A DNA stretch of 64,000 nucleotides from an uncultured Bacilli bacterium (GTDB lineage Bacteria > Bacillota_I > Bacilli_A > RF39 > UBA660), in the NCBI GenBank assembly GCA_934096735.1, contig CAKOMS010000003.1:7298-71297 (forward strand), in the 5' to 3' direction. Positions 528 to 64,000 of this stretch are shown here, in pieces. A program made the position numbers and the translations under genes. A model generated the notes under the pieces. The model was not told the origin of the DNA. It searched no databases and was given only the letters and a program-made list of their open reading frames with translations. The first letter of the stretch is position 1, and each line of letters starts with the position of its first letter.

Positions 528-2000
528 TTATGGTATATTTATTGTTTCTTTTTCTTTTATGTTTTTTAAAATGTTCTCAATTTTATTTTTATATTCTTTA
601 TTAAAGTTTTTATGATTTTCAATTTTTTCTTTGTAATAATTTATTTTATTTAAATCTTTTTTTTCATAATATATATACATAAGTTCACATAAAGAATCAA
701 TTAAATTGGATGATTTTTCATAATAATCTATAGCTTTATTTAAGTCTTTTTCTAAATTAACATAAATGCATCCAGTAGAATAGAAGTATTTTGCAAGATA
801 ATAATAAGATGTGATGTTTCTTTCTTTTATAGAAGATGTTAATGATTCATTAAAATATTTAAATGCTTCTTTTAAAGAATTATTTTTTAAATAAATTACT
901 CCAAGTTCTTTGCAAGCATAACTTTCTTTTAATTCTGCGCTTTTTTTAAAGCATTCAATAGTTTTATTTATATCTTTATCTTTGTAATAATTAGCTAAAT
1001 TATTAAAAGCATAGACATAATTTTTACTTGCTGCTTCTTCAAATAAACTTAAAGCAATATTTATGTCTTTTTTTACTCCTAGTCCTTCTTTATACATAAG
1101 ACCTAGAGAATTAATTGCAGCGATGTTTCCTAAAGATTTAGCTTTTTCAAAGTATTTGATTGCTTCATCGTATTCATAGTTTCCAATTTTACCGTTTTTA
1201 ATCATGTTACCCATAGTCCACCAGGCAGATGGGTGATTTTTTTCAGCAGCAGATGCAAAATATTCAAATGCTTTTTCATAATTTGGTTTGCCACTAAAGT
1301 AACCTCTATATTCATTTATTCCTAAATGATAATTAGCATATGCATTTCCTTCTTTGGCTAAATTTACTAGTGAATAATCAAAGTTTGTTCCTTCATTTAA
1401 TTCAAGAAGCAGAAAGTCTTCTAAATCTTTTACTCCTATTTTAGTACTTTCTAAAAGAGTTTCAACAACATTTTTAATTCTTTCATCTTCATATAATGGT
1501 TGTTTTTTTTCTAATATACCATATATTAAGAAATTTACAAATAAATCATAATAATTTTCTTTATTAAATAAATCAGTAAATTTTTCTAAAGCTTCTTTTT
1601 TTATGTAAAGGTCATTTTTGGATATATTGTATAGTTTTATACAAATTTCTTTTAGAATTGAATTTTTGTTTATTTCTTCAATATTCTTTATATCATAAAT
1701 TCTACCATTTACGATTGTTAAAATATTACAAACAATATCTATAAAAACTTTGTTATTTTTTTCATATTTATTTTTTAAGTTAATATAAATTTGTTTGTAA
1801 TCATTTCCAATACTTCTTGAACCAATGCAATAATTATTTATTGTAGAGTCATTTGCATAGGGCACGTTAAAAATTGTACAAAACACTTCGCTTTGTATTG
1901 CGGATGATTTATTTTTACTTAGTTCTTTAATAGTAATTATTATATTACCTAAAGATAGATGACTATAAGAGTCATTTAATTTTATATATTTTCTTTCCAT
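528..2000 (-). CDS. Sel1-like/TPR repeat protein with uncharacterised N-terminal domain
   Basis: 490-aa ORF. The C-terminal half has repeated A..G...A...LG.MY..G.GV..D...A..(Y/W)F..AA units typical of Sel1 repeats. Confidence 0.65.
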   Translation of the reverse strand: MERKYIKLNDSYSHLSLGNIIITIKELSKNKSSAIQSEVFCTIFNVPYANDSTINNYCIGSRSIGNDYKQIYINLKNKYEKNNKVFIDIVCNILTIVNGRIYDIKNIEEINKNSILKEICIKLYNISKNDLYIKKEALEKFTDLFNKENYYDLFVNFLIYGILEKKQPLYEDERIKNVVETLLESTKIGVKDLEDFLLLELNEGTNFDYSLVNLAKEGNAYANYHLGINEYRGYFSGKPNYEKAFEYFASAAEKNHPSAWWTMGNMIKNGKIGNYEYDEAIKYFEKAKSLGNIAAINSLGLMYKEGLGVKKDINIALSLFEEAASKNYVYAFNNLANYYKDKDINKTIECFKKSAELKESYACKELGVIYLKNNSLKEAFKYFNESLTSSIKERNITSYYYLAKYFYSTGCIYVNLEKDLNKAIDYYEKSSNLIDSLCELMYIYYEKKDLNKINYYKEKIENHKNFNKEYKNKIENILKNIKEKETINIP

Positions 2001-2114
2001 GTTTTTATTATATCACTTTTTCGAATAAATTGCGAGTGAAAAATATGAAAAGCGGGTATATGTGTAAATGAAATTAATTTTTATTTTATAATATACTTTT
2101 TATAGGAGGAAGTT

Positions 2115-3347
2115 ATGAAAAAATTTTTGAAAAATTATAAGAGTACTTTGATACTTCTTGGTAGTGTTATTTTAGGGGTTATAGTTGGTCTTGTTTTTGG
2201 AGAGAAAGCAACAGTATTAAGTCCACTTGGAGATATTTTTATCAATTTAATGTTTGTTGTAATTGTTCCTTTAGTATTTTTAACTATTAGTAGTGCAATT
2301 ATTAAAATGGATAGTCCAAAAAGACTTGGAAAAATTATGTCTAGAATAGTAATTGTATTTATTTTAATGTCTCTAGTAGCAGCATTAGTAGGAGTAGTTT
2401 CAACTTATGCAGTTAAACTTGTAAATGGAAGTGATGTAGTTGGTATATTAGAACTTATTGATGATAGTGCATCGACTGATACAGAACTTAATATTTTAGA
2501 AAGGACTGCTAGTATACTTACTGTAAATGATTTTAATAAATTACTTAGTAAGGATAGTATAATTGCAATATTAATATTTGCTATAATATTTGGTTTAGGT
2601 GTTAGAAAGACAAAAGAGAAAGGCGAAATAGTTAGTAAATTTATTATAGGGTTAAATGATGTTATATTAAATGTTGTAAATATAATAATGTATTATGCAC
2701 CGATTGGTCTTTCTTGTTATATGGCAGCATTAATTGGTAGTTATGGAAGTAGTATAGCAGTAGGATTTTTAAAAACATTTATTGTTTATACTATTGCATC
2801 AATATTTATTTATGTAGTTATTTATAGTATTTATGCTTTAATTAGTGGTGGATTTGATGCTTTAAAAAGATATTGGAGTGTTATTCTTGCTCCGACTACA
2901 ATGGCTCTTGCTACATGCTCATCTGCTGCTAGTATTCCTGTAAATGTAGTTGCTACTAAAAAAATGGGAGTATCACCTGATGTTTGTGAGGCTACTATTC
3001 CAATGGGTACAAGTTTCCATAAAGATGGCTCTGTACTTGGTAGTGTATTTAAAATTATGTTTTTAGTTTATTTGTTTAATACAAGCCCTAGTATTTGGAC
3101 TGTAATTGGGGTATCATTACTTGCAACTTTACTTGTAACTGCAGTTCCAGTAGGTGGTGGTACTATTTCAGAAATGTTTATTTTAACTCTTATGGGATTT
3201 CCTGTTGGAGCATTACCAATACTTACAATTATTGCAACAGTTATTGATGCTCCTGCAACAGTACTAAATGTTGTTGGTGATACATCGGCGTCATTATTGA
3301 TAGGAAGACTCGTTGATGGCAAAAAGTTTCTTACAAATAAAAAATAA
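2115..3347 (+). CDS. dicarboxylate/amino acid:cation symporter (DAACS/GltP-SstT family)
   Basis: 410-aa polytopic membrane ORF with RBS aggagg upstream. Motifs CSSAASIPV, IPMGTSFHKDGS and VVGDTSAS are typical of the sodium:dicarboxylate symporter family. Confidence 0.8.
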   Translation: MKKFLKNYKSTLILLGSVILGVIVGLVFGEKATVLSPLGDIFINLMFVVIVPLVFLTISSAIIKMDSPKRLGKIMSRIVIVFILMSLVAALVGVVSTYAVKLVNGSDVVGILELIDDSASTDTELNILERTASILTVNDFNKLLSKDSIIAILIFAIIFGLGVRKTKEKGEIVSKFIIGLNDVILNVVNIIMYYAPIGLSCYMAALIGSYGSSIAVGFLKTFIVYTIASIFIYVVIYSIYALISGGFDALKRYWSVILAPTTMALATCSSAASIPVNVVATKKMGVSPDVCEATIPMGTSFHKDGSVLGSVFKIMFLVYLFNTSPSIWTVIGVSLLATLLVTAVPVGGGTISEMFILTLMGFPVGALPILTIIATVIDAPATVLNVVGDTSASLLIGRLVDGKKFLTNKK

Positions 3348-15000: not shown

Positions 15001-17277
15001 ATGAAAGACGAAGTTTTAAACGATTTAGTAGTTGTAAAAAGAAGTGGTCAGAGGGTTCCTTTTAATGGCACTAAAGTTGCAATTGCTATTAAAAAGGGAT
15101 TTGATTCAGTGTATGGAGATGCATATGATGAGAAAGATGCCAATAAGGTATATGAAAAAGTTTTAAGTATTATTGAAAAAGAATACAAGGATAGAAAAAC
15201 TATTGGTGTTGAAGAAATACAAGATATTATAGAAAGAGTTTTAAAAGATAAAGATGAAATTGTATATAATTCTTTTTCAGATTATCGTGAGAGAAGAGCA
15301 GCATCAAGGGAAGCATTTGTTGTTAAACAACAACATAAATTTGTAAAAGCTATTGAATCTTTAGGGTTAAAGAGTGCTAAAGAAGAGAATACTAAAAGAG
15401 AAAATGCTAATGTTGATGGGGATGGCCCAATGGGTACAATGCTTCATTTTGGAAGTACAATATCTAAAGAATTTGCTAAAGCATATTTAATGGATGCAAA
15501 GTATTCTAGAGCTCATGATGAAGGTGCTATTCATGTTCATGATTTAGATTTTTTACCAATGGGTACTACTACATGTAATCAAATTGATTTAGATAAATTA
15601 TTTAAAAATGGATTTTCTACTGGTCATGGTTATTTGAGATGTCCAAATGATATTATGAGTTATGCTGCTTTGGCTGCAATTGCTATTCAAGCTAATCAAA
15701 ATGATCAACATGGTGGTCAAAGTATTCCAATGTTTGATTATTATATGGCTCCAGGAGTAATGAAAACATTTAAAAAACAATTTAAACAAACTTTGTATGA
15801 TTTTTTAGATTTAGATGGTTTTTTAGGAGAATTAAATTTTGAGAAAATAGTTGAAAAAATAAATGATTTAAGTAGTATTTCATTTGATGTTACAAGTTTG
15901 TTTAAAGAATATATAACTAGTGAAAGATTAGAAGAAATTTTTACTAAATCATATAATAAGGCTTTAGCTAAGACTGATAGAATTACTTATCAAGCAATGG
16001 AAGCATTTATTCACAATTTAAATACAATGCATAGTCGTGCTGGAGCACAAGTGCCATTTTCTTCAGTTAATTTTGGTACTGATATAAGTCCGGAAGGAAG
16101 AATGGTTATTAAGAATTTCTTACTTGCAACTGATGCTGGACTTGGTAATGGAGAAACTCCAATATTTCCAATATCTATTTTTAAAGTAAAAGAAGGAGTA
16201 AGTTATAATGAGGGAGATCCTAATTATGATTTATTCAAACTTGCTTGTAAAGTATCTGCTAAAAGATTGTTCCCTAATTTTTCATTCTTAGATTCTTCAT
16301 TTAATAAGCCATATTTGAAAGATGGAGATCCAAGATGTGAAGTAGGATATATGGGTTGTAGAACAAGAGTTATTGGTAATGTTTGTGATAGAGATAAAGA
16401 GATTACTCCAGGAAGAGGAAATTTATCATTTACTACTATTAATTTACCTAGACTTGGTATTAAACATGGTATTGCACTTCATGAAAGAGATAAAGCTGAT
16501 ATGAAAGGCTTTTATGAAGAACTTGATGAAATGCTTGATTTGGTAAAAGGACAATTATTACAGAGATTTGATATTCAATGTAGTAAAAGTGTTAATAATT
16601 TTAAATTCTTACTTGGTAGTCATGTTTGGCTTGATTCTGAAAAATTAGAACCTGGTCAAAAGATTAGAAAAGTATTAAAACATGGAACATTATCTATTGG
16701 ATTTATTGGACTTGCTGAGTGTTTAAAAGCTTTAATTGGAGAACATCAAGGTGAAAGTGAAGAAGCACAAAAATTAGGTCTTGAAATTATTGGGCATATG
16801 AGAGATAAGTGTGATGAATATAGTGAAGAAATGAAACTTAACTTTACTTGTCTTGCTACTCCTGCTGAGGGATTAAGTGGTAGATTTGTAGGAATTGATA
16901 GAGCTATATATGGAAAGATAAAAGGTATTACAGATAGAGAATATTATACAAATTCATTCCATGTACCAGTATATTATAAAACTAGTATTCAACATAAATT
17001 AGAAGTTGAAGGAAAATATCATAAACTTACTAATGCTGGTCATATTTCATATATTGAAATTGATGGTGATACTGCAAATAACGTAGCAGCTTTTGAAAAA
17101 ATTATACGTATAATGCATGATTCTGATATTGGATATGGTGCAATAAATCATCCAGTTGATAGAGATCCAGTTTGTGGATATGTTGGAGTTATTGATGATG
17201 TTTGTCCTAGATGTGGAAGACATGATTTTGAGGGTGTTCCGGTTGAAGTATTAAAAGGTTTACATTGTGATTGTTAA
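15001..17277 (+). CDS. nrdD: anaerobic ribonucleoside-triphosphate reductase (class III), large part lacking the glycyl-radical segment
   Basis: N-terminal ATP-cone (VVKRSGQRVPF), class III RNR barrel motifs, C-terminal CPRCG zinc ribbon. The ORF ends with three consecutive TAA codons before any RxxGY glycyl-radical motif. Confidence 0.9.
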   Translation: MKDEVLNDLVVVKRSGQRVPFNGTKVAIAIKKGFDSVYGDAYDEKDANKVYEKVLSIIEKEYKDRKTIGVEEIQDIIERVLKDKDEIVYNSFSDYRERRAASREAFVVKQQHKFVKAIESLGLKSAKEENTKRENANVDGDGPMGTMLHFGSTISKEFAKAYLMDAKYSRAHDEGAIHVHDLDFLPMGTTTCNQIDLDKLFKNGFSTGHGYLRCPNDIMSYAALAAIAIQANQNDQHGGQSIPMFDYYMAPGVMKTFKKQFKQTLYDFLDLDGFLGELNFEKIVEKINDLSSISFDVTSLFKEYITSERLEEIFTKSYNKALAKTDRITYQAMEAFIHNLNTMHSRAGAQVPFSSVNFGTDISPEGRMVIKNFLLATDAGLGNGETPIFPISIFKVKEGVSYNEGDPNYDLFKLACKVSAKRLFPNFSFLDSSFNKPYLKDGDPRCEVGYMGCRTRVIGNVCDRDKEITPGRGNLSFTTINLPRLGIKHGIALHERDKADMKGFYEELDEMLDLVKGQLLQRFDIQCSKSVNNFKFLLGSHVWLDSEKLEPGQKIRKVLKHGTLSIGFIGLAECLKALIGEHQGESEEAQKLGLEIIGHMRDKCDEYSEEMKLNFTCLATPAEGLSGRFVGIDRAIYGKIKGITDREYYTNSFHVPVYYKTSIQHKLEVEGKYHKLTNAGHISYIEIDGDTANNVAAFEKIIRIMHDSDIGYGAINHPVDRDPVCGYVGVIDDVCPRCGRHDFEGVPVEVLKGLHCDC

Positions 17278-35499: not shown

Positions 35500-35740
35500 T
35501 TGACAAATAGTTTTTTTTATTATAAAATCTAGTAAATCGAAGAGAAGGACCCTAGTAGTTATGAATATAACTTTTGTAGAGAACTAATGGTTGGTGAAAA
35601 TTAGTAAAGTCTTCATAGTGAATAAAAACCTTTGAGAGAATTTTATCCGGTTGAACCGTTATAACTTAAGAGAATCAGTTAATGATTAAAGAAGGGTGGT
35701 ACCACGAAAGAATCGTCCCTTTAGTCATTAACTTTTTTTA
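35500..35740 (+). promoter_or_regulatory. promoter plus T-box leader (tRNA-sensing riboswitch) of lysS
   Basis: TTGACA, 17 nt spacer, TAAAAT. Stem I elements are present (agaga, distal ggtgaaa). The canonical T-box/antiterminator is aaGGGTGGTACCACG...CGTCCCtt with a 7-nt tggtacc bulge. It is followed by the gttaatgattaaag/ctttagtcattaac helix and T7. An AAA in the gaataaaaacc region is a plausible Lys specifier. Confidence 0.7.
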
Positions 35741-35757: not shown

Positions 35758-37257
35758 ATGGATATGGAAAGAACATTTACTGAACAAGAGTTGGTAAGAA
35801 GAGAAAAGGCTGAAAATTTAAGAAAACTTGGTCTTGATCCTTTTGGACAAAGATTTGATAGAACAAGTAATTCTAAGGATATTTTTGAAAAATATAATGA
35901 AATGAGTAAAGAAGAACTTGAAAGTTTAAAACCAGAAGTTAGTATTGCTGGAAGAATTATGAATAAAAGAAGAAGTGGTAAAGCTGGTTTTATGGATATT
36001 CAAGATAAGTATGGTAATATTCAAATTTATATTAGTATTAGTGATGTTGGAGAAAGTGAATATGAGCTTTATAAATCATGTGATTTAGGAGATATTATTG
36101 GTATTAATGGTTTTGTCTGTAAAACTAATACTGGTGCATTAACTGTACATGCTACAAAATATACTCATTTAGTTAAAGCATTAAAACCACTTCCTGAAAA
36201 GTATCATGGTCTTACTGATATAGAAGAAAGATACAGAAGAAGATATGTTGATTTAATAATGAATGAAAATTCTAAGAAGATAGCATTTACTAGACCTAAG
36301 ATAATTAGATGTATACAAAATTTTATGGATGGTAGAGGTTTTACAGAAGTTGAGACTCCAGTGCTTACAAGTTTACTTACAGGTGCATCAGCAAGACCAT
36401 TTGTAACTCATCATAATGCACAAGATATGGATATGTATCTAAGAATTGCTTTAGAACTTCCACTTAAGAGATTACTTGTTGGTGGTATGGAAGCGGTTTA
36501 TGAAATTGGTAGAGTATTTAGAAATGAAGGAATGGATTTAAAGCATAATCCTGAGTTTACTTTAATGGAAGCATATTTAGCATATTCTAATTTAGATGGT
36601 ATGATGGAACTTACTGAAAGTATGTTTCAAACTATAGCTAATACTGTATTTAATAAAACTGTATTTAATTGGAGTGGTTATGAAATTGATTTAAAAGGAC
36701 CTTGGAAAAGAATTTCTATGACTGATGCAATAAAAGAGAAAACTGGTATTGATTTTAAGAAAGAAATGAGTGTAGAAGAAGCTTTAAAATTATGTGAAGA
36801 ACATAATATTGAAGTACAAGAACATGAAAGAAATGTTGGTCATATAATTAATTTGTTCTTTGAAAAATATGTTGAAGAAACATTAATTCAACCTACATTC
36901 TTATATGGTCATCCAGTTGAAATAAGTCCACTTACTAAGAGAAATCCAGAAGATCCAAGATTTGTAGATCGTTTTGAATTATTTATTGGCGGTAAAGAAT
37001 TTGCAAATGCTTATACAGAATTAAATGATCCAATTGATCAACTTGCCAGATTTGAAGATCAAATAAGTGAAAGAGATCTTGGTAATGACGAAGCTAATGA
37101 TATTGATATGGATTTTGTTGAAGCACTTGAATATGGTATGCCTCCTGCTGGTGGAATTGGTTATGGAATTGATAGACTTTGTATGTTATTTAATGAAACA
37201 GATACAATTAGAGAAGTAATATTATTTCCAACTATGAAAAATATCAATAAAAATTAG
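35758..37257 (+). CDS. lysS: lysine--tRNA ligase (class II)
   Basis: 499 aa; OB-fold N-terminus and class II motifs ([15 protein letters not shown]). Confidence 0.95.
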
Positions 37258-51036: not shown

Positions 51037-52515
51037 ATGGAAAATGAAAAAATAATATCTTCTATCGCCAAAAGGGGTAATGGTGAAATATATTTAGGTG
51101 TTGTTGGTGCCGTTCGTACTGGTAAATCAACATTTATTAAAAGAGTAATTGAGAATTTAGTTGTACCAAATATTACTGATTCTTTTGATAAGAAAAAATG
51201 CTTAGATGAAATTCCCCAAAGTGCAGAAGGTAAAACTATTATGACAACTGAACCTAAATTTGTTCCTTCGAATGGTGCTACTATTAAGGTAGATTCTTTT
51301 GAAACAAATATTAAACTTGTTGATTGTGTTGGTTATGTAATACCAGGAGCAAATGGTTATGAAGATGAAGATGGAAATCCTAGAATGGTTAAAACACCTT
51401 GGTTTCCAGATTCTATTCCTTTTGTAGAAGCTGCTGAAATTGGTACCGAAAAAGTAATTAAGGATCATTCTACAATAGGTATTTTAGTTACTACCGATGG
51501 TTCTTTTGGAGAAATTAAACGAGAAAATTATGTTGAAGCAGAAGAAAAGATAGTTAGTGAACTTAAAGAGATTGGTAAGCCATTTATTGTTATTTTAAAT
51601 AGTTTACATCCTACTAATACTGAGACTGCTGAACTTAGTAGAGAACTTGAAAGTAATTATGATGTACCTGTAATGCCTATTAATGTTGAAGGCATGAATG
51701 AAAAAGAAATTATGAGTATTTTAAAGTCTGCTTTATATGAATTTCCTATTTTAGATATTGAAGTTAATATGCCAGAATGGATACATGTTCTTCCTAATAA
51801 TCATGAAATTAAAATGCATTATTTAGAAAAGATAAGAGAAAGTGTTGTTAGTGTTAGTAAAGTTAAGGATGTAGATTATATAATTGGTCATTTTGAAAAT
51901 AGTGAATATATTAGTAAAGCATATATTAGTAATTTAGATACTGCGAGTGGTGTTGTTACAATTAATTTAGAGAGTCCAAATGAATTATATAATGAAGTAC
52001 TTAAAAATATTATGGGTAGTAGTACTACTACTAAGGCAGGCCTTTTAAAGATATTTTCAACTTATAAAGAAAATAAAGAAGAGACTGAATGTATTAAATC
52101 AGCTTTAAGACAAGCACAAACTACAGGTTATGGTATTGTTTATCCAACACTAAAAGATATGAAACTTGAAACTCCAGAGATTATTAAACAAGGTAATAGA
52201 TATGGAGTTAAATTAAAAGCTCTTGCTAGTAGTATACATTTAATGAAAGTTGATGTTGAAAGTACCTTTGAACCTATAATTGGTAGTGAACTACAAAGTA
52301 AAGAATTAATTAATTATTTAATGAAAGATTATGAAACTGATCCAAGTAGTATTTGGAAAAGTGAAATATTTGGAAGAAGCTTAGAAGTTATTGTTCAAGA
52401 GGGTATTCAAGCTAAACTTAATATGATGCCTGATAATACAAGATTTAAGTTATCTAATACTGTAACTAAGATAGTAAATAAGGGAAGTAATAACTTAATT
52501 GCTATAGTTATATAG
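51037..52515 (+). CDS. spoIVA: stage IV sporulation protein A
   Basis: 492 aa; GEIYLGVVGAVRTGKSTFIK Walker A and full-length similarity to SpoIVA. Confidence 0.95.
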   Translation: MENEKIISSIAKRGNGEIYLGVVGAVRTGKSTFIKRVIENLVVPNITDSFDKKKCLDEIPQSAEGKTIMTTEPKFVPSNGATIKVDSFETNIKLVDCVGYVIPGANGYEDEDGNPRMVKTPWFPDSIPFVEAAEIGTEKVIKDHSTIGILVTTDGSFGEIKRENYVEAEEKIVSELKEIGKPFIVILNSLHPTNTETAELSRELESNYDVPVMPINVEGMNEKEIMSILKSALYEFPILDIEVNMPEWIHVLPNNHEIKMHYLEKIRESVVSVSKVKDVDYIIGHFENSEYISKAYISNLDTASGVVTINLESPNELYNEVLKNIMGSSTTTKAGLLKIFSTYKENKEETECIKSALRQAQTTGYGIVYPTLKDMKLETPEIIKQGNRYGVKLKALASSIHLMKVDVESTFEPIIGSELQSKELINYLMKDYETDPSSIWKSEIFGRSLEVIVQEGIQAKLNMMPDNTRFKLSNTVTKIVNKGSNNLIAIVI

Positions 52516-53020: not shown

Positions 53021-53049
53021 TTGAATAATAAAAAATTTTATAGTATTCT
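53021..53049 (+). promoter_or_regulatory. putative promoter of family copy 2
   Basis: TTGAAT, 17 nt spacer, TATTCT; conserved with the copy 1 and copy 3 upstream regions. Confidence 0.35.
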
Positions 53050-53109
53050 ATTTATAGAAAGATAGAAAATAAGTAAAAAGGAAAACTTACTTACCTGGAG
53101 GTTGATAAA

Positions 53110-54630
53110 ATGAAAAAAATAGACTTCCGGGGGGGGGTTGTGAAACTCCTTCTTGGAATAGAATTAATAACTTTATTTTTAGGGATTAAGAGTTTTGGTA
53201 ATAAAAACAACACATTAGATGATATTAAATTGTTAGATAATAAATCTAATAATCTTTTTGCAATTATGGTAAAAGACTCTAGTGGTAATTATAATGAATC
53301 AAGTACATTTCCAGAAGGAATGTATGTACTAAATGAAACAATGTCATCATGCATAGATAATAATGGTAACAAAATAGATAATGTACTTAGTTATAGTGAT
53401 GGAGTAGTATCAGCAAGAACAAATAAGACAGTATATTGTTATTTATATTTTGATAAAGATAATACTGTATATGCAAAAGTATTAGATGATTTTTCTAATA
53501 ATAATGGAGTACAAAAAACAACAGATGAAAATGGAAAATATGTATATTACTATACAGGTAATGTAACAAATAACAATTTAGTATTAAATAATTATTGTTG
53601 GAAGATGGTAAGAACAACCGAAACAGACGGAGTAAAACTTTTGTATAATGGACTTTATTCAGATAGTACAAAGTGTAACAACACAGGAGCAAGTGTATAT
53701 ATAGATTCAAATAAAACTGCATTCAATACAAATTATAATTCACCAGCCTATGTTGGATACATGTATGGAACAGTGTATGCATGGAATAGTAAAAATGTAC
53801 GCAATTTCGAAACATATTATTATGGAAGTGATGTAACATGGGATGGAACAACATATACTTTAAGTGAAGCAGAAAGCGGAGCAATAGCAGATATGTCTAG
53901 TAAATTAAATACGAAACATTATACCTGTTTAAGTACAAGTTCATCATGTTCGACAGTTTATTATATATATTCTAGAGCTTCAAATGGTTCAGTATTTTAC
54001 ATGACATTAACAAATGGCAAAAAGATAGAAGATGCCTTAGATGAAATGTTAAATTACAATACAACAAATAGTAATATAAAGACAGTAATAGATAATTGGT
54101 ATAGTACAAATATGACAAATGCAATAAATTATTTAGAGAATGCAATATATTGCAATAATAGAAATATATATGATTTAGGAGGATGGAATCCAAGTGGAGG
54201 AATTGTATCAGGATCAGCAAGTTATTTACGTTTTAATGATTATTTTTCTAGTAAAGCAAGATTAACATGTCAAGATAAAGAAGATCAATTTACATTAAAA
54301 GTAGATTCTGGAGGAACATTAGGATATGGAAATAATGCCTTAGATTATCCAATAGGATTATTAACAGGTAAAGAAGCAAATCTAGCCATTGGTGATTCAA
54401 GCACTAATTATTTAAATGATAATAATGATGATTCTTATTGGTTGCTGTCCCCTTACCACTTCATCGGCGACATTGGTTATATTCGTAGCGTGCACTATGG
54501 GAGTTTGGACACCAACAATGTGTTAGGCACTTACGGGGTCCGTCCAGCTGTATCACTTTTCACAAAAGTTAAGCTGAGCGGAGAAGGAAATGGTACTGTT
54601 GAGTCACCATATATTTTAGCTCCGTTATAG
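53110..54630 (+). CDS. paralogous membrane-anchored surface protein, copy 2 (in-frame configuration)
   Basis: 506 aa, read from the RBS-preceded ATG through the G9 tract into MKKIDFRGGVVKLLLGIELITLFLGIKSFG (signal anchor) and the conserved family body. Confidence 0.8.
   Translation: MKKIDFRGGVVKLLLGIELITLFLGIKSFGNKNNTLDDIKLLDNKSNNLFAIMVKDSSGNYNESSTFPEGMYVLNETMSSCIDNNGNKIDNVLSYSDGVVSARTNKTVYCYLYFDKDNTVYAKVLDDFSNNNGVQKTTDENGKYVYYYTGNVTNNNLVLNNYCWKMVRTTETDGVKLLYNGLYSDSTKCNNTGASVYIDSNKTAFNTNYNSPAYVGYMYGTVYAWNSKNVRNFETYYYGSDVTWDGTTYTLSEAESGAIADMSSKLNTKHYTCLSTSSSCSTVYYIYSRASNGSVFYMTLTNGKKIEDALDEMLNYNTTNSNIKTVIDNWYSTNMTNAINYLENAIYCNNRNIYDLGGWNPSGGIVSGSASYLRFNDYFSSKARLTCQDKEDQFTLKVDSGGTLGYGNNALDYPIGLLTGKEANLAIGDSSTNYLNDNNDDSYWLLSPYHFIGDIGYIRSVHYGSLDTNNVLGTYGVRPAVSLFTKVKLSGEGNGTVESPYILAPL
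53129..53137 (+). repeat. G9 homopolymer (in-frame length)
   Basis: Nine consecutive G counted directly. Confidence 0.9.
54439..54555 (+). other. adenine-depleted hypervariable block at the 3' end of copy 2 (DGR variable-region-like)
   Basis: Runs tggttgctgtccccttaccacttcatcggcgac...ggggtccgtccagctgtatca. It has the same borders as the copy 1 block, but its internal codons differ mainly at positions 1 and 2. Confidence 0.5.
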
Positions 54631-62859: not shown

Positions 62860-62920
62860 TTTAATAGATGATAGAAAATAAGTAAGAAATAACTCTTACT
62901 TACTCGGAGGTTGATTAAAA

Positions 62921-64000
62921 TGAAAAAAATAGACTTCCGGGGGGGGGGTTGTGAAACTCCTTCTTGGAATAGAAATAATAACTTTATTTTTAGGGATTAA
63001 AAGTTTTGGTAATAAAAATAATACATTAGATGATATTAAATTGTTAGATAATAAATCTAATAATCTTTTTGCAATTATGGTTAAAGATTCTAGTGGTAAT
63101 TATAATGAATCAAGTACATTTCCAGAAGGAGCATACATATTAAATGAAGGAATGTCATCATGTATAGATAATAATGGTAATAAGATAGATAATGTATTAA
63201 GTTATAGTGATGGGGTAGTATCAGCAAGAACAAATAAGACAGTATATTGTTATTTATATTTTGATAAAGACAATAGTGTATATGCAAAAGTAATAGATGA
63301 TTATGAAAATAATAATGGTGTTAAAAAGACAACAGATGAAAATGGAAAAGATGTGTATTATTATATAGGAAATATAACAAATAATAATATACTATTTAAT
63401 AATTATTGTTGGAAAATGGTAAGGACAACTGAAACAGATGGAGTAAAGCTCATTTACAACGGAGTATATAAAGAAGATACAAAATGCAATAATACAGGAA
63501 CAGATGTTTATATAAATCAAAATAAAGTTGCACTTAATAAAATAGGTGATTCACCAGCACATGTAGGGTATATGTATGGAACAGTGTATGCATCTTCTTC
63601 AAAATCAGCATCAAACTTTGGAACATACTATTATGGAAGTGATGTAACATGGAATGGAACAACGTATACATTAAGTGATGCAGAAAGTGGAGCAATAGCA
63701 GATATGTATAGTAAACTTAGTACAAAACATTATACATGTTTAAGTACAAGTTCAAGTTGTTCAACAGTTTATTATATTTATCATATGGGTAGTACAACGA
63801 GTATAGCATATTATATGACATTAACAAATGGTAAAAAAATAGAAGATCTCTTAGATGAAATGTTTAATTATAATACAACAAGTAGTAATATAAAGACAGT
63901 AATAGATAATTGGTATAGTACAAACATGACAAATGTAACAGATTATTTAGAGAATGCAATATATTGTAATAATAGAAACATATATAATTTAGGAGGATGG
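62921..64000 (+). CDS. paralogous surface protein, copy 3 (3' end outside window; signal-anchor segment read out of frame)
   Basis: The frame is open from ATG 62921 to the window edge (360 codons). Residues 10-23 read GCETPSWNRNNNFI instead of the hydrophobic VVKLLLGIE(I/L)ITLF, because of G10 (+1) and a T4 run at 62988..62991 (-1 relative to T5 in the other copies). Confidence 0.75.
62940..62949 (+). repeat. G10 homopolymer
   Basis: Ten consecutive G counted directly. Confidence 0.9.

Follow-up and report, generated by a model that had tools for sequence, protein, structure and literature searches.

Nine or ten guanines at codons 7-10: a probable phase-variation switch in a paralogous family of putatively anchored proteins of an uncultured Bacilli bacterium

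The question raised by the locus considered here is whether a run of guanines near the start of a gene acts as a switch of its expression, or whether the differences in the length of this run come from assembly error, gene decay or another mode of decoding. The stretch analyzed, referred to below as the window, comprises 64 kb with approximately 25% G+C of contig CAKOMS010000003.1 from an uncultured, spore-forming bacterium of the Bacilli (RF39; UBA660), whose sequence goes back to gut metagenomes of the Hadza. According to tblastn it contains exactly three paralogues, copies 1, 2 and 3, all on the forward strand and each with a G tract within the first codons.

Copy 2 is flanked by the genes for SpoIVA, HU, RpoB and RpoC, and its sequence reads ...ggaggttgataaaATGaaaaaaatagacttccGGGGGGGGGttgtgaaactccttcttgg. 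A Shine-Dalgarno (SD) sequence GGAGG (53097-53101), located 8 nt upstream of the ATG at 53110-53112, is kept in all tract-bearing copies and takes the form GGAG in an allele without a tract from a related locus, L017. The ATG is followed by aaaaaaatagacttcc, by nine G residues at 53129..53137 (codons 7-10, cGG GGG GGG Gtt) and by ttGTGaaactccttcttgg, with a GTG at 53140. The coding sequence (53110..54630) is in frame, i.e., in the ON state, its translation beginning with MKKIDFRGGVVKLLLGIELITLFLGI and extending over 506 codons; the same protein (P0001) is present in NCBI and ENA assemblies. In silico, tracts of G6, G9 and G12 kept the frame and gave products of 505-507 amino acids (aa), while G7, G8, G10 and G11 led to truncation after 10-26 codons, with 26 aa remaining for G10. 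The position of the nine guanines and the reading from the ATG at 53110 through the tract into a 506-aa protein, both given in an earlier note made from the letters alone, were recovered exactly from the sequence, the open reading frame (ORF) listing and the translation. The same note had described the state of the switch as G9/T5; the T5 run (tttatttttagg, 53175-53179) is invariant in every aligned copy and relative, and nothing in these alignments pointed to a second switch there.

Copies 1 and 3 were found in the opposite state, in agreement with the note's claim that paralogues in one genome differ in tract length. Copy 1 has an SD GGGAGG (31169-31174) and an ATG (31182-31184) in front of a G10 tract at 31210..31219, and the frame of the ATG closes at TAA 31269-31271, while an intact body of 626 codons (31222..33102), a long form with an insert of about 134 aa, forms a long ORF from GTG 31222. 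In copy 3 the SD (62906-62910) and the ATG (62920-62922) precede a G10 tract at 62939..62948, the stop is TAA 62998-63000, and the body starting from GTG 62951 continues past the window end (62951..64000), the full-length protein being P0014 with 493 aa. In both copies, therefore, the frame of the ATG meets TAA after 26-29 codons (OFF) and the long ORF lies in another frame. Runs of this length are highly unusual for the window: eight overlapping matches to G8 or longer, all at three sites, compared with 0.07 expected from dinucleotide shuffles of the 64 kb. The run-length table contained four G5, one C5, one G9 and two G10; G or C runs of 6-8 were absent from the 64 kb, and runs above five occurred only at the three paralogue tracts.

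Related DNA came from four sources: JGI/ENA metagenome contigs searched with the exact DNA context; identity look-ups of the neighboring proteins HU, the small methyltransferase and a 207-aa protein 5' of copy 1, which are unbiased as to tract state; look-ups of family members; and a protein-pattern scan of GTDB species representatives. After leaving out two tracts cut by locus ends (L036 20265-20273 and L046 1-10) and one duplicate, 34 complete tracts within coding sequences were counted, 11 with G9 (in frame) and 23 with G10 (out of frame), and no other length was present. At the copy 2 locus (HU, gene, methyltransferase, rpoB) five assemblies had G9 (the window, L001, L036, L039, L045) and six had G10 (L037, L038, L040, L042, L043, L044), so that the tract is not invariant among relatives; invariance among them is what the earlier note had named as counting against a switch. 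L036 (G9) and L040 (G10), which came from different samples, differed by a single gap and no mismatch in 6118 bp, and the window (G9) and L042 (G10) by one gap and one mismatch in 6023 bp. A one-G indel against 0-1 mismatches in about 6 kb makes the tract the fastest-changing site in these genomes. The copy 1 locus had G10 in the window, L061 and L013, and G9 in L060, which is 99.87% identical to the window over 5.2 kb (6 mismatches and 1 gap in 5249 bp) and in which the gene was called from the ATG as a 639-aa protein.

With both lengths present at one locus among near-identical strains, the stochastic, copy-by-copy ON/OFF switch suggested in the note gained clear support. We consider it highly probable that the paralogues are independent contingency loci, phase-varying between ON and OFF by slipped-strand mispairing. 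All the marks by which a contingency locus based on a simple sequence repeat can be recognized in sequence data appear to be present, and none of them was missing; the tracts of nine or ten G residues, for instance, are above the length of about G7 from which such repeats are taken to be hypermutable. Each paralogue carries its poly-G in codons 7-10, between a strong ribosome-binding site (RBS) with its ATG and the membrane-anchor segment, and slipped-strand mispairing during replication would add or remove one G. With G9, as read from the translations, the ATG is in frame with a body of 490-630 codons; with G10, the ribosome is in a frame that stops after 26-29 codons, and no anchored protein is made from the ATG. 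Since promoter, RBS and tract are separate for every copy, the cells of one lineage would express a random subset of a family of at least five to nine related but divergent surface proteins, and because of this random choice per lineage the population would always be heterogeneous for them. Such heterogeneity might help to evade antibodies or phages, or might vary adhesion.

Several points weigh against this interpretation. The copy 3 locus had G10 in 5 of 5 assemblies. An assembly gives one consensus length, i.e., the majority state, and heterogeneity within a population as well as reversibility were deduced rather than seen. Errors of Illumina sequencing or of the assemblers at G homopolymers may still affect a given contig, some having a coverage of only 5-7x. 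In two sister subfamilies described below, a tract of the promoter type is nearly fixed, with G9 in 14 of 15 instances and G7 in one (L006), so that variability is not visible at all G tracts of the family. Finally, it is from weak similarities (DUF6273, Foldseek) that a surface location and a function of the protein are derived.

The leaders of the copies contain further conserved elements. A promoter-like block in front of copy 2 (TTGAAT ... TTATAGTA, 53021..53045) was invariant in nine leaders aligned across the window and other contigs and would, judging from this conservation, work as a promoter; its spacing of 12 nt is non-canonical, and a consensus promoter scan did not call it. A hairpin TAAGTAA / TTACTTA of 7-9 bp (TAAGTAAG...CTTACTTA) in the 5' untranslated region (5'UTR), directly upstream of the RBS, is present at 53070..53093 in copy 2, at 62877-62901 in copy 3 and in most leaders of the relatives, and according to the leader alignment it is missing from the copy 1 type of leader; folding predicted it for copy 3 and not in the minimum-energy fold of copy 2. 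In folds of 53094-53131 and 62903-62941 (z about -3.5) the SD region (CCUGGAGGUU or CUCGGAGGUU) was paired with GACUUCCGGG, located at the tract's 5' edge, and the AUG came to lie in the loop; no such pairing was predicted for the leader of copy 1. The predicted pairing of the SD with CUUCC-Gn could damp translation initiation; covariation is uninformative for it, as the residues of poly-G can pair with C and with U alike. An Rfam scan gave no match in the leaders, the sole match in the window being a T-box at 35531-35723. An internal promoter TAGACT...TGTGAAACT around the window tract was also considered and rejected, its -10 being poor and the consensus scan having no match on the + strand at this place.

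The alternative that survives best, albeit an unlikely one, is that G10 is not a true OFF state: the G run would act as an SD for the GTG located 2 nt downstream, giving a short (M)KLLLG... isoform without the basic N-terminus, or slippage of RNA polymerase or of the ribosome would restore the frame in some molecules, so that the switch would alter the amount or the isoform. RNA polymerase slippage on homopolymers is known in other bacteria. The arrangement G10, TT, GTG sets five G residues about 7 nt upstream of the GTG, and GGGGG could pair with the anti-SD through G-U pairs. Gene callers, too, preferred this GTG: approximately 60 of the 67 closest protein clusters were annotated from 'MKLLLG' or 'MLALLLG', i.e., from the GTG directly after the tract or formed by it, and only seven from MKKIDFRGGV... 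The alleles locked in the ON state, however, contradict such a start. L017 (455-510) and L028 (6730-6785) have no tract (leader ATG AAA AAA AAT ACT CTA CAT GAA ATG ATT GTG AAA, product MKKNTLHEMIVKLLL) and retain the GTG as an internal valine codon with no SD in front of it, and L059 (1201-1245), with the interrupted tract CC-G6-TGTGT-GTG, is in frame for 639 aa (MRDIFKNDFRGVCVKLLL). The start of all three is the upstream ATG preceded by the conserved SD; this makes the ATG the real start and the G run dispensable for the protein. Moreover, in the variant leader ...G10-TGCTTGCA... the GTG is made from the last G of the tract, with no spacing left, and ribosomes coming from the strong upstream RBS would traverse and occlude the GTG. 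The GTG is best read as an internal valine codon and the short gene calls as artefacts of the OFF length, the family genes having been mis-called from it because the assembly caught this length. A leaky G10 is in any case compatible with a switch at the DNA level and would only modify its output.

Decay of the G10 copies into pseudogenes by a one-way frameshift was judged very improbable. It would fit the predominance of the OFF length, counted in 23 of the 34 tracts and seen in the clusters starting past the tract mentioned above, and the uniform G10 at the copy 3 locus, but the OFF bodies are free of internal stops across 349-626 codons in a genome with 25% GC. Their ratios of nonsynonymous to synonymous substitution (dN/dS, Nei-Gojobori) were 0.26-0.32 in OFF-OFF pairs and 0.27-0.36 in ON-OFF pairs, compared with 0.35 in the ON-ON pair; for the body of copy 1 the range was 0.26-0.36. 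Intact ORFs with dN/dS like that of the ON copies imply that the OFF copies are not pseudogenes and are under the same purifying selection. In addition, the promoter-like block, the 5'UTR hairpin and the RBS are as conserved in OFF as in ON copies, and at one and the same locus a strain can have the ON length while its clone-mate has the OFF length.

Equally little probability attaches to the view that errors of sequencing or assembly account for the G9/G10 differences, the true length being equal everywhere. Homopolymers of G are error-prone, coverage was low in some contigs (6.5x in L001, 5x in L058), and contigs often break at or beside the tract. The breaks, however, are accounted for by the leader together with the first ~170 codons, which are 86-88% identical between paralogues and because of which assemblies fragment at this place. 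Homopolymer miscalling is argued against by the agreement in tract state at all three loci between independent assemblies of the same strain (the window, L001, L039, L061), which came from different samples and assemblers, and by contig L011, which at 78x coverage holds one G9 and one G10 copy. Nor would random error give 34 tracts with only nine or ten G residues, and comparisons over 6-7.5 kb, including A8 and T8 runs, contained no other indel.

Contigs ending at or just past the tract were L001 (end, 17055-17070), L012 (start) and L046 (start), and ends at or near it were also seen in L013, L014, L019 and L021. The family size per genome is probably under-counted.

Programmed ribosomal frameshifting as the main mode of decoding was rejected, no stimulatory element having been identified: it might contribute leakiness at most, and with in-frame G9 alleles at the same loci the DNA switch is sufficient and frameshift decoding is not needed.

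The phase-variable genes belong to a family with more than 1000 homologues, all unnamed and without Pfam domains, and neither Pfam nor NCBIfam has a model for it. The copies occur as single genes dispersed between housekeeping genes, and every copy has a leader of its own. One genome has at least five copies: three lie on the window contig, and two more stand in tandem in L046, which was obtained from the same sample. A second apparently has at least nine, five on a 224-kb contig and four on a 193-kb contig, which we infer to be one genome and which were both placed in one sample, ERZ4560700. The tandem members in L046 (1-3235), a 499-aa gene cut by the contig start and a second one at 1718-3235, both have the variant leader ...G10-TGCTTGCA (RGGVLALLLG type). 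Two sister subfamilies have other N-termini, canonical signal anchors (MKNKNVSLILLLSVFVVITGVIFL), and their tract lies in the promoter, in the spacer between -35 and -10 (TTGACAc-G9-ttgttaTATAAT, 16-nt spacer), followed by GGTGG and the start codon. Such tracts were found at L002 2935-2965, L006 42-70 and in L051-L058 (e.g., L051 1450-1480 and 3100-3130; L058 1093-1125). The motif Gn-TTGT is common to the placements in the coding sequence and in the promoter, and with G9 in the promoter spacer of its sister subfamilies the family appears repeatedly tied to poly-G control. Alleles are also exchanged between loci, as deduced from a 630-aa long-form allele that replaces the 506-aa form at the HU locus of some strains (L037 10471-12363; L038 1815-3707) with 88-91% identity to window 53110-54630 over the first 515 bp 3' of the tract; this suggests a cassette-like exchange between paralogues.

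In the protein of copy 2, the hydrophobic residues 10-26 form a putative N-terminal membrane anchor and the remainder, a putative extracytoplasmic domain, is rich in Asn, Tyr and Cys, with eight Cys invariant in the family; in the long forms the insert of about 134 aa follows residue 181. AlphaFold2 with an alignment of 20 sequences gave a mostly beta fold with a predicted local distance difference test score (pLDDT) of 72. In Foldseek, the top match in BFVD was a DUF6273 phage protein with an expectation value (E) of 4e-5 and a probability of 0.96, but a template-modeling (TM) score of 0.2, and the best PDB match was the immunoglobulin A (IgA) peptidase 9qa6 of Thomasclavelia ramosa (E 0.03, 102 columns, 24% identity), the matched part of the chain not being reported. 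The N-terminal domain of this peptidase is C-type-lectin-like (PMC12237041). Pfam and NCBIfam scans of the window proteins gave no match to the copy protein, including DUF6273 (PF19789), at E <= 0.01; in a permissive Pfam search DUF6273 appeared below threshold in five of the 20 family members (best E 0.0011). A sequence-profile search of PDB produced only chance antibody matches. The entropy of the alignment reached a mean of about 2 bits in a hypervariable patch at residues ~425-480 (window 54380-54545), compared with 0.2-0.6 elsewhere; the patch is part of the C-terminal, DUF6273-like domain and stands between two conserved motifs, YWLLSP and GxRPAxSL. On these data and models a surface-exposed role, either ligand-binding or antigenic, is plausible. 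A type IV pilin or pseudopilin was rejected, since the signature G|F(M)TLIE with Glu at +5, expected behind a short basic leader, is absent: the N-terminus is MKKIDFRGGVVKLLLGIELITLF, in which the single Glu stands at +2 from the nearest Gly or at +9 from RGG, and none of the pilin models of Pfam or NCBIfam matched in the protein scans. An obvious sortase sorting signal was not seen in the phase-variable proteins.

Among the neighboring genes, spoIVA differed between strains: in L043 (3307-6076) and L038 (1-1189), orthologous to window 51037-52515, it was called only as a middle and C-terminal part of 280 aa, the homology to the window beginning about 363 nt into the gene. Upstream of the partial gene there is an element with helix-turn-helix proteins and a large serine recombinase of 528 aa; from its arrangement, it looks like a skin-like intervening element interrupting spoIVA in some strains. 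Convergent with copy 1, a gene on the minus strand (33186-34814) encodes a 542-aa protein whose long N-terminal part has no annotation and whose C-terminal 210 residues contain a class B sortase domain. The T-box leader on the + strand (35531-35723; Rfam RF00230, 111 bits) lies 5' of a gene for a class II (Asp/Lys/Asn-type) aminoacyl-tRNA synthetase (35758-37257). A 203-aa protein encoded on the + strand at 29782-30393 matched Pfam Phage_30_3 (T4 gp30.3) with E 1e-26, and its gene clusters just 5' of copy 1 with genes for a radical-SAM protein, for a GT2-TPR protein and for a protein of 783 aa in which a PRTase domain matched weakly, below threshold.

Going beyond the switch itself, a wider picture can be proposed tentatively. 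A walled, spore-forming gut lineage of the Bacilli, represented in Hadza and other human gut metagenomes, may practice surface variation in the style of the Mollicutes, with at least five to nine lectin-like genes under private poly-G switches. The G9-TTGT module would act either translationally or transcriptionally, and cassette-like replacement of alleles together with the hypervariable patch would create combinatorial phasotypes that shape the interactions with IgA, phages and mucus. Contingency loci based on homopolymers are textbook matter for a few pathogens and are barely documented in gut commensals. For annotation, the consequence is that about two thirds of the family genes were mis-called from the internal GTG, which can be corrected in metagenome-assembled genomes. 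The strain-level G9/G10 differences are a ready marker of within-host selection in public metagenomes, and pressure from IgA or phages may have this family as one of its targets, in a lineage not yet cultured.

No published report of homopolymer contingency loci in spore-forming low-GC Bacilli was found. Homopolymeric tracts inside the coding genes of prokaryotes have been the subject of a general study (PMC2831843).

The closest known parallels come from organisms of other lineages. The genome of Campylobacter jejuni is AT-rich. Its poly-G/C genes resemble the present family in having intragenic G tracts in such a genome with a peak at G9/G10, in the toggling of the frame by one-unit changes and in the many independently switching loci per genome (PMC3401435, PMC4965091). 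Tracts in C. jejuni are biased to G9/G10, since insertions predominate among the mutations of G8/G9 and deletions among those of G10/G11 (PMC3401435), a bias which would explain the strict G9/G10 distribution observed here. In contrast to this proteobacterium, the host considered here belongs to an uncultured, spore-forming Bacilli lineage of the Gram-positive type. Instead of mostly unrelated glycan-modification enzymes, the targets are paralogous anchored proteins of a single family, in whose genes the tract is fixed at codons 7-10.

In Mycoplasma hominis, the adhesin Vaa is switched by a frameshift in a 5' intragenic poly-A. The Vlp proteins of M. hyorhinis have a homopolymeric poly-A in each vlp promoter region, as far as the account of Citti and Wise (1995) in PMC10502178 goes. 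Within the limits of that account, they share with the present family a variable surface multigene family in a low-GC lineage with a private homopolymer for each gene, and with the sister subfamilies a tract in the promoter, its position between -35 and -10 being stated for the latter only. The mycoplasmas differ in using poly-A rather than poly-G, and the proteins described here are not lipoproteins and have no sequence relation to theirs; the switch in the window is translational, and genes for the cell wall and for sporulation occur in the organism (MurC-type ligase, SpoIVA, sortase B).

In Neisseria meningitidis, porA and opc have their tracts in the promoter spacer. The hmbR and hpuAB genes of the same species carry poly-G within the ORF (PMC3786947). 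Both placements of G/C homopolymers, for frameshift in the ORF and for -35/-10 spacing, thus occur in one organism group as they do here; unlike in Neisseria, both serve one protein family and share Gn-TTGT, and there is no relation of proteins or hosts.

The genome of Bifidobacterium is high-GC, and G runs are less anomalous there. The sortase-dependent pilus genes of B. breve have an intragenic G tract (PMC9187656). The likeness lies in a gut commensal with an intragenic G tract in the gene of a surface structure, where slippage is needed for expression and the lengths are mixed in the population. Single pilus loci in Bifidobacterium, a case proven by maximum-depth sequencing, stand against a dispersed family of 5-9 or more members read from consensus assemblies here. 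The novelty of the present case lies in its host lineage, in a protein family that is not annotated and in the two ways in which one G9 module is used.

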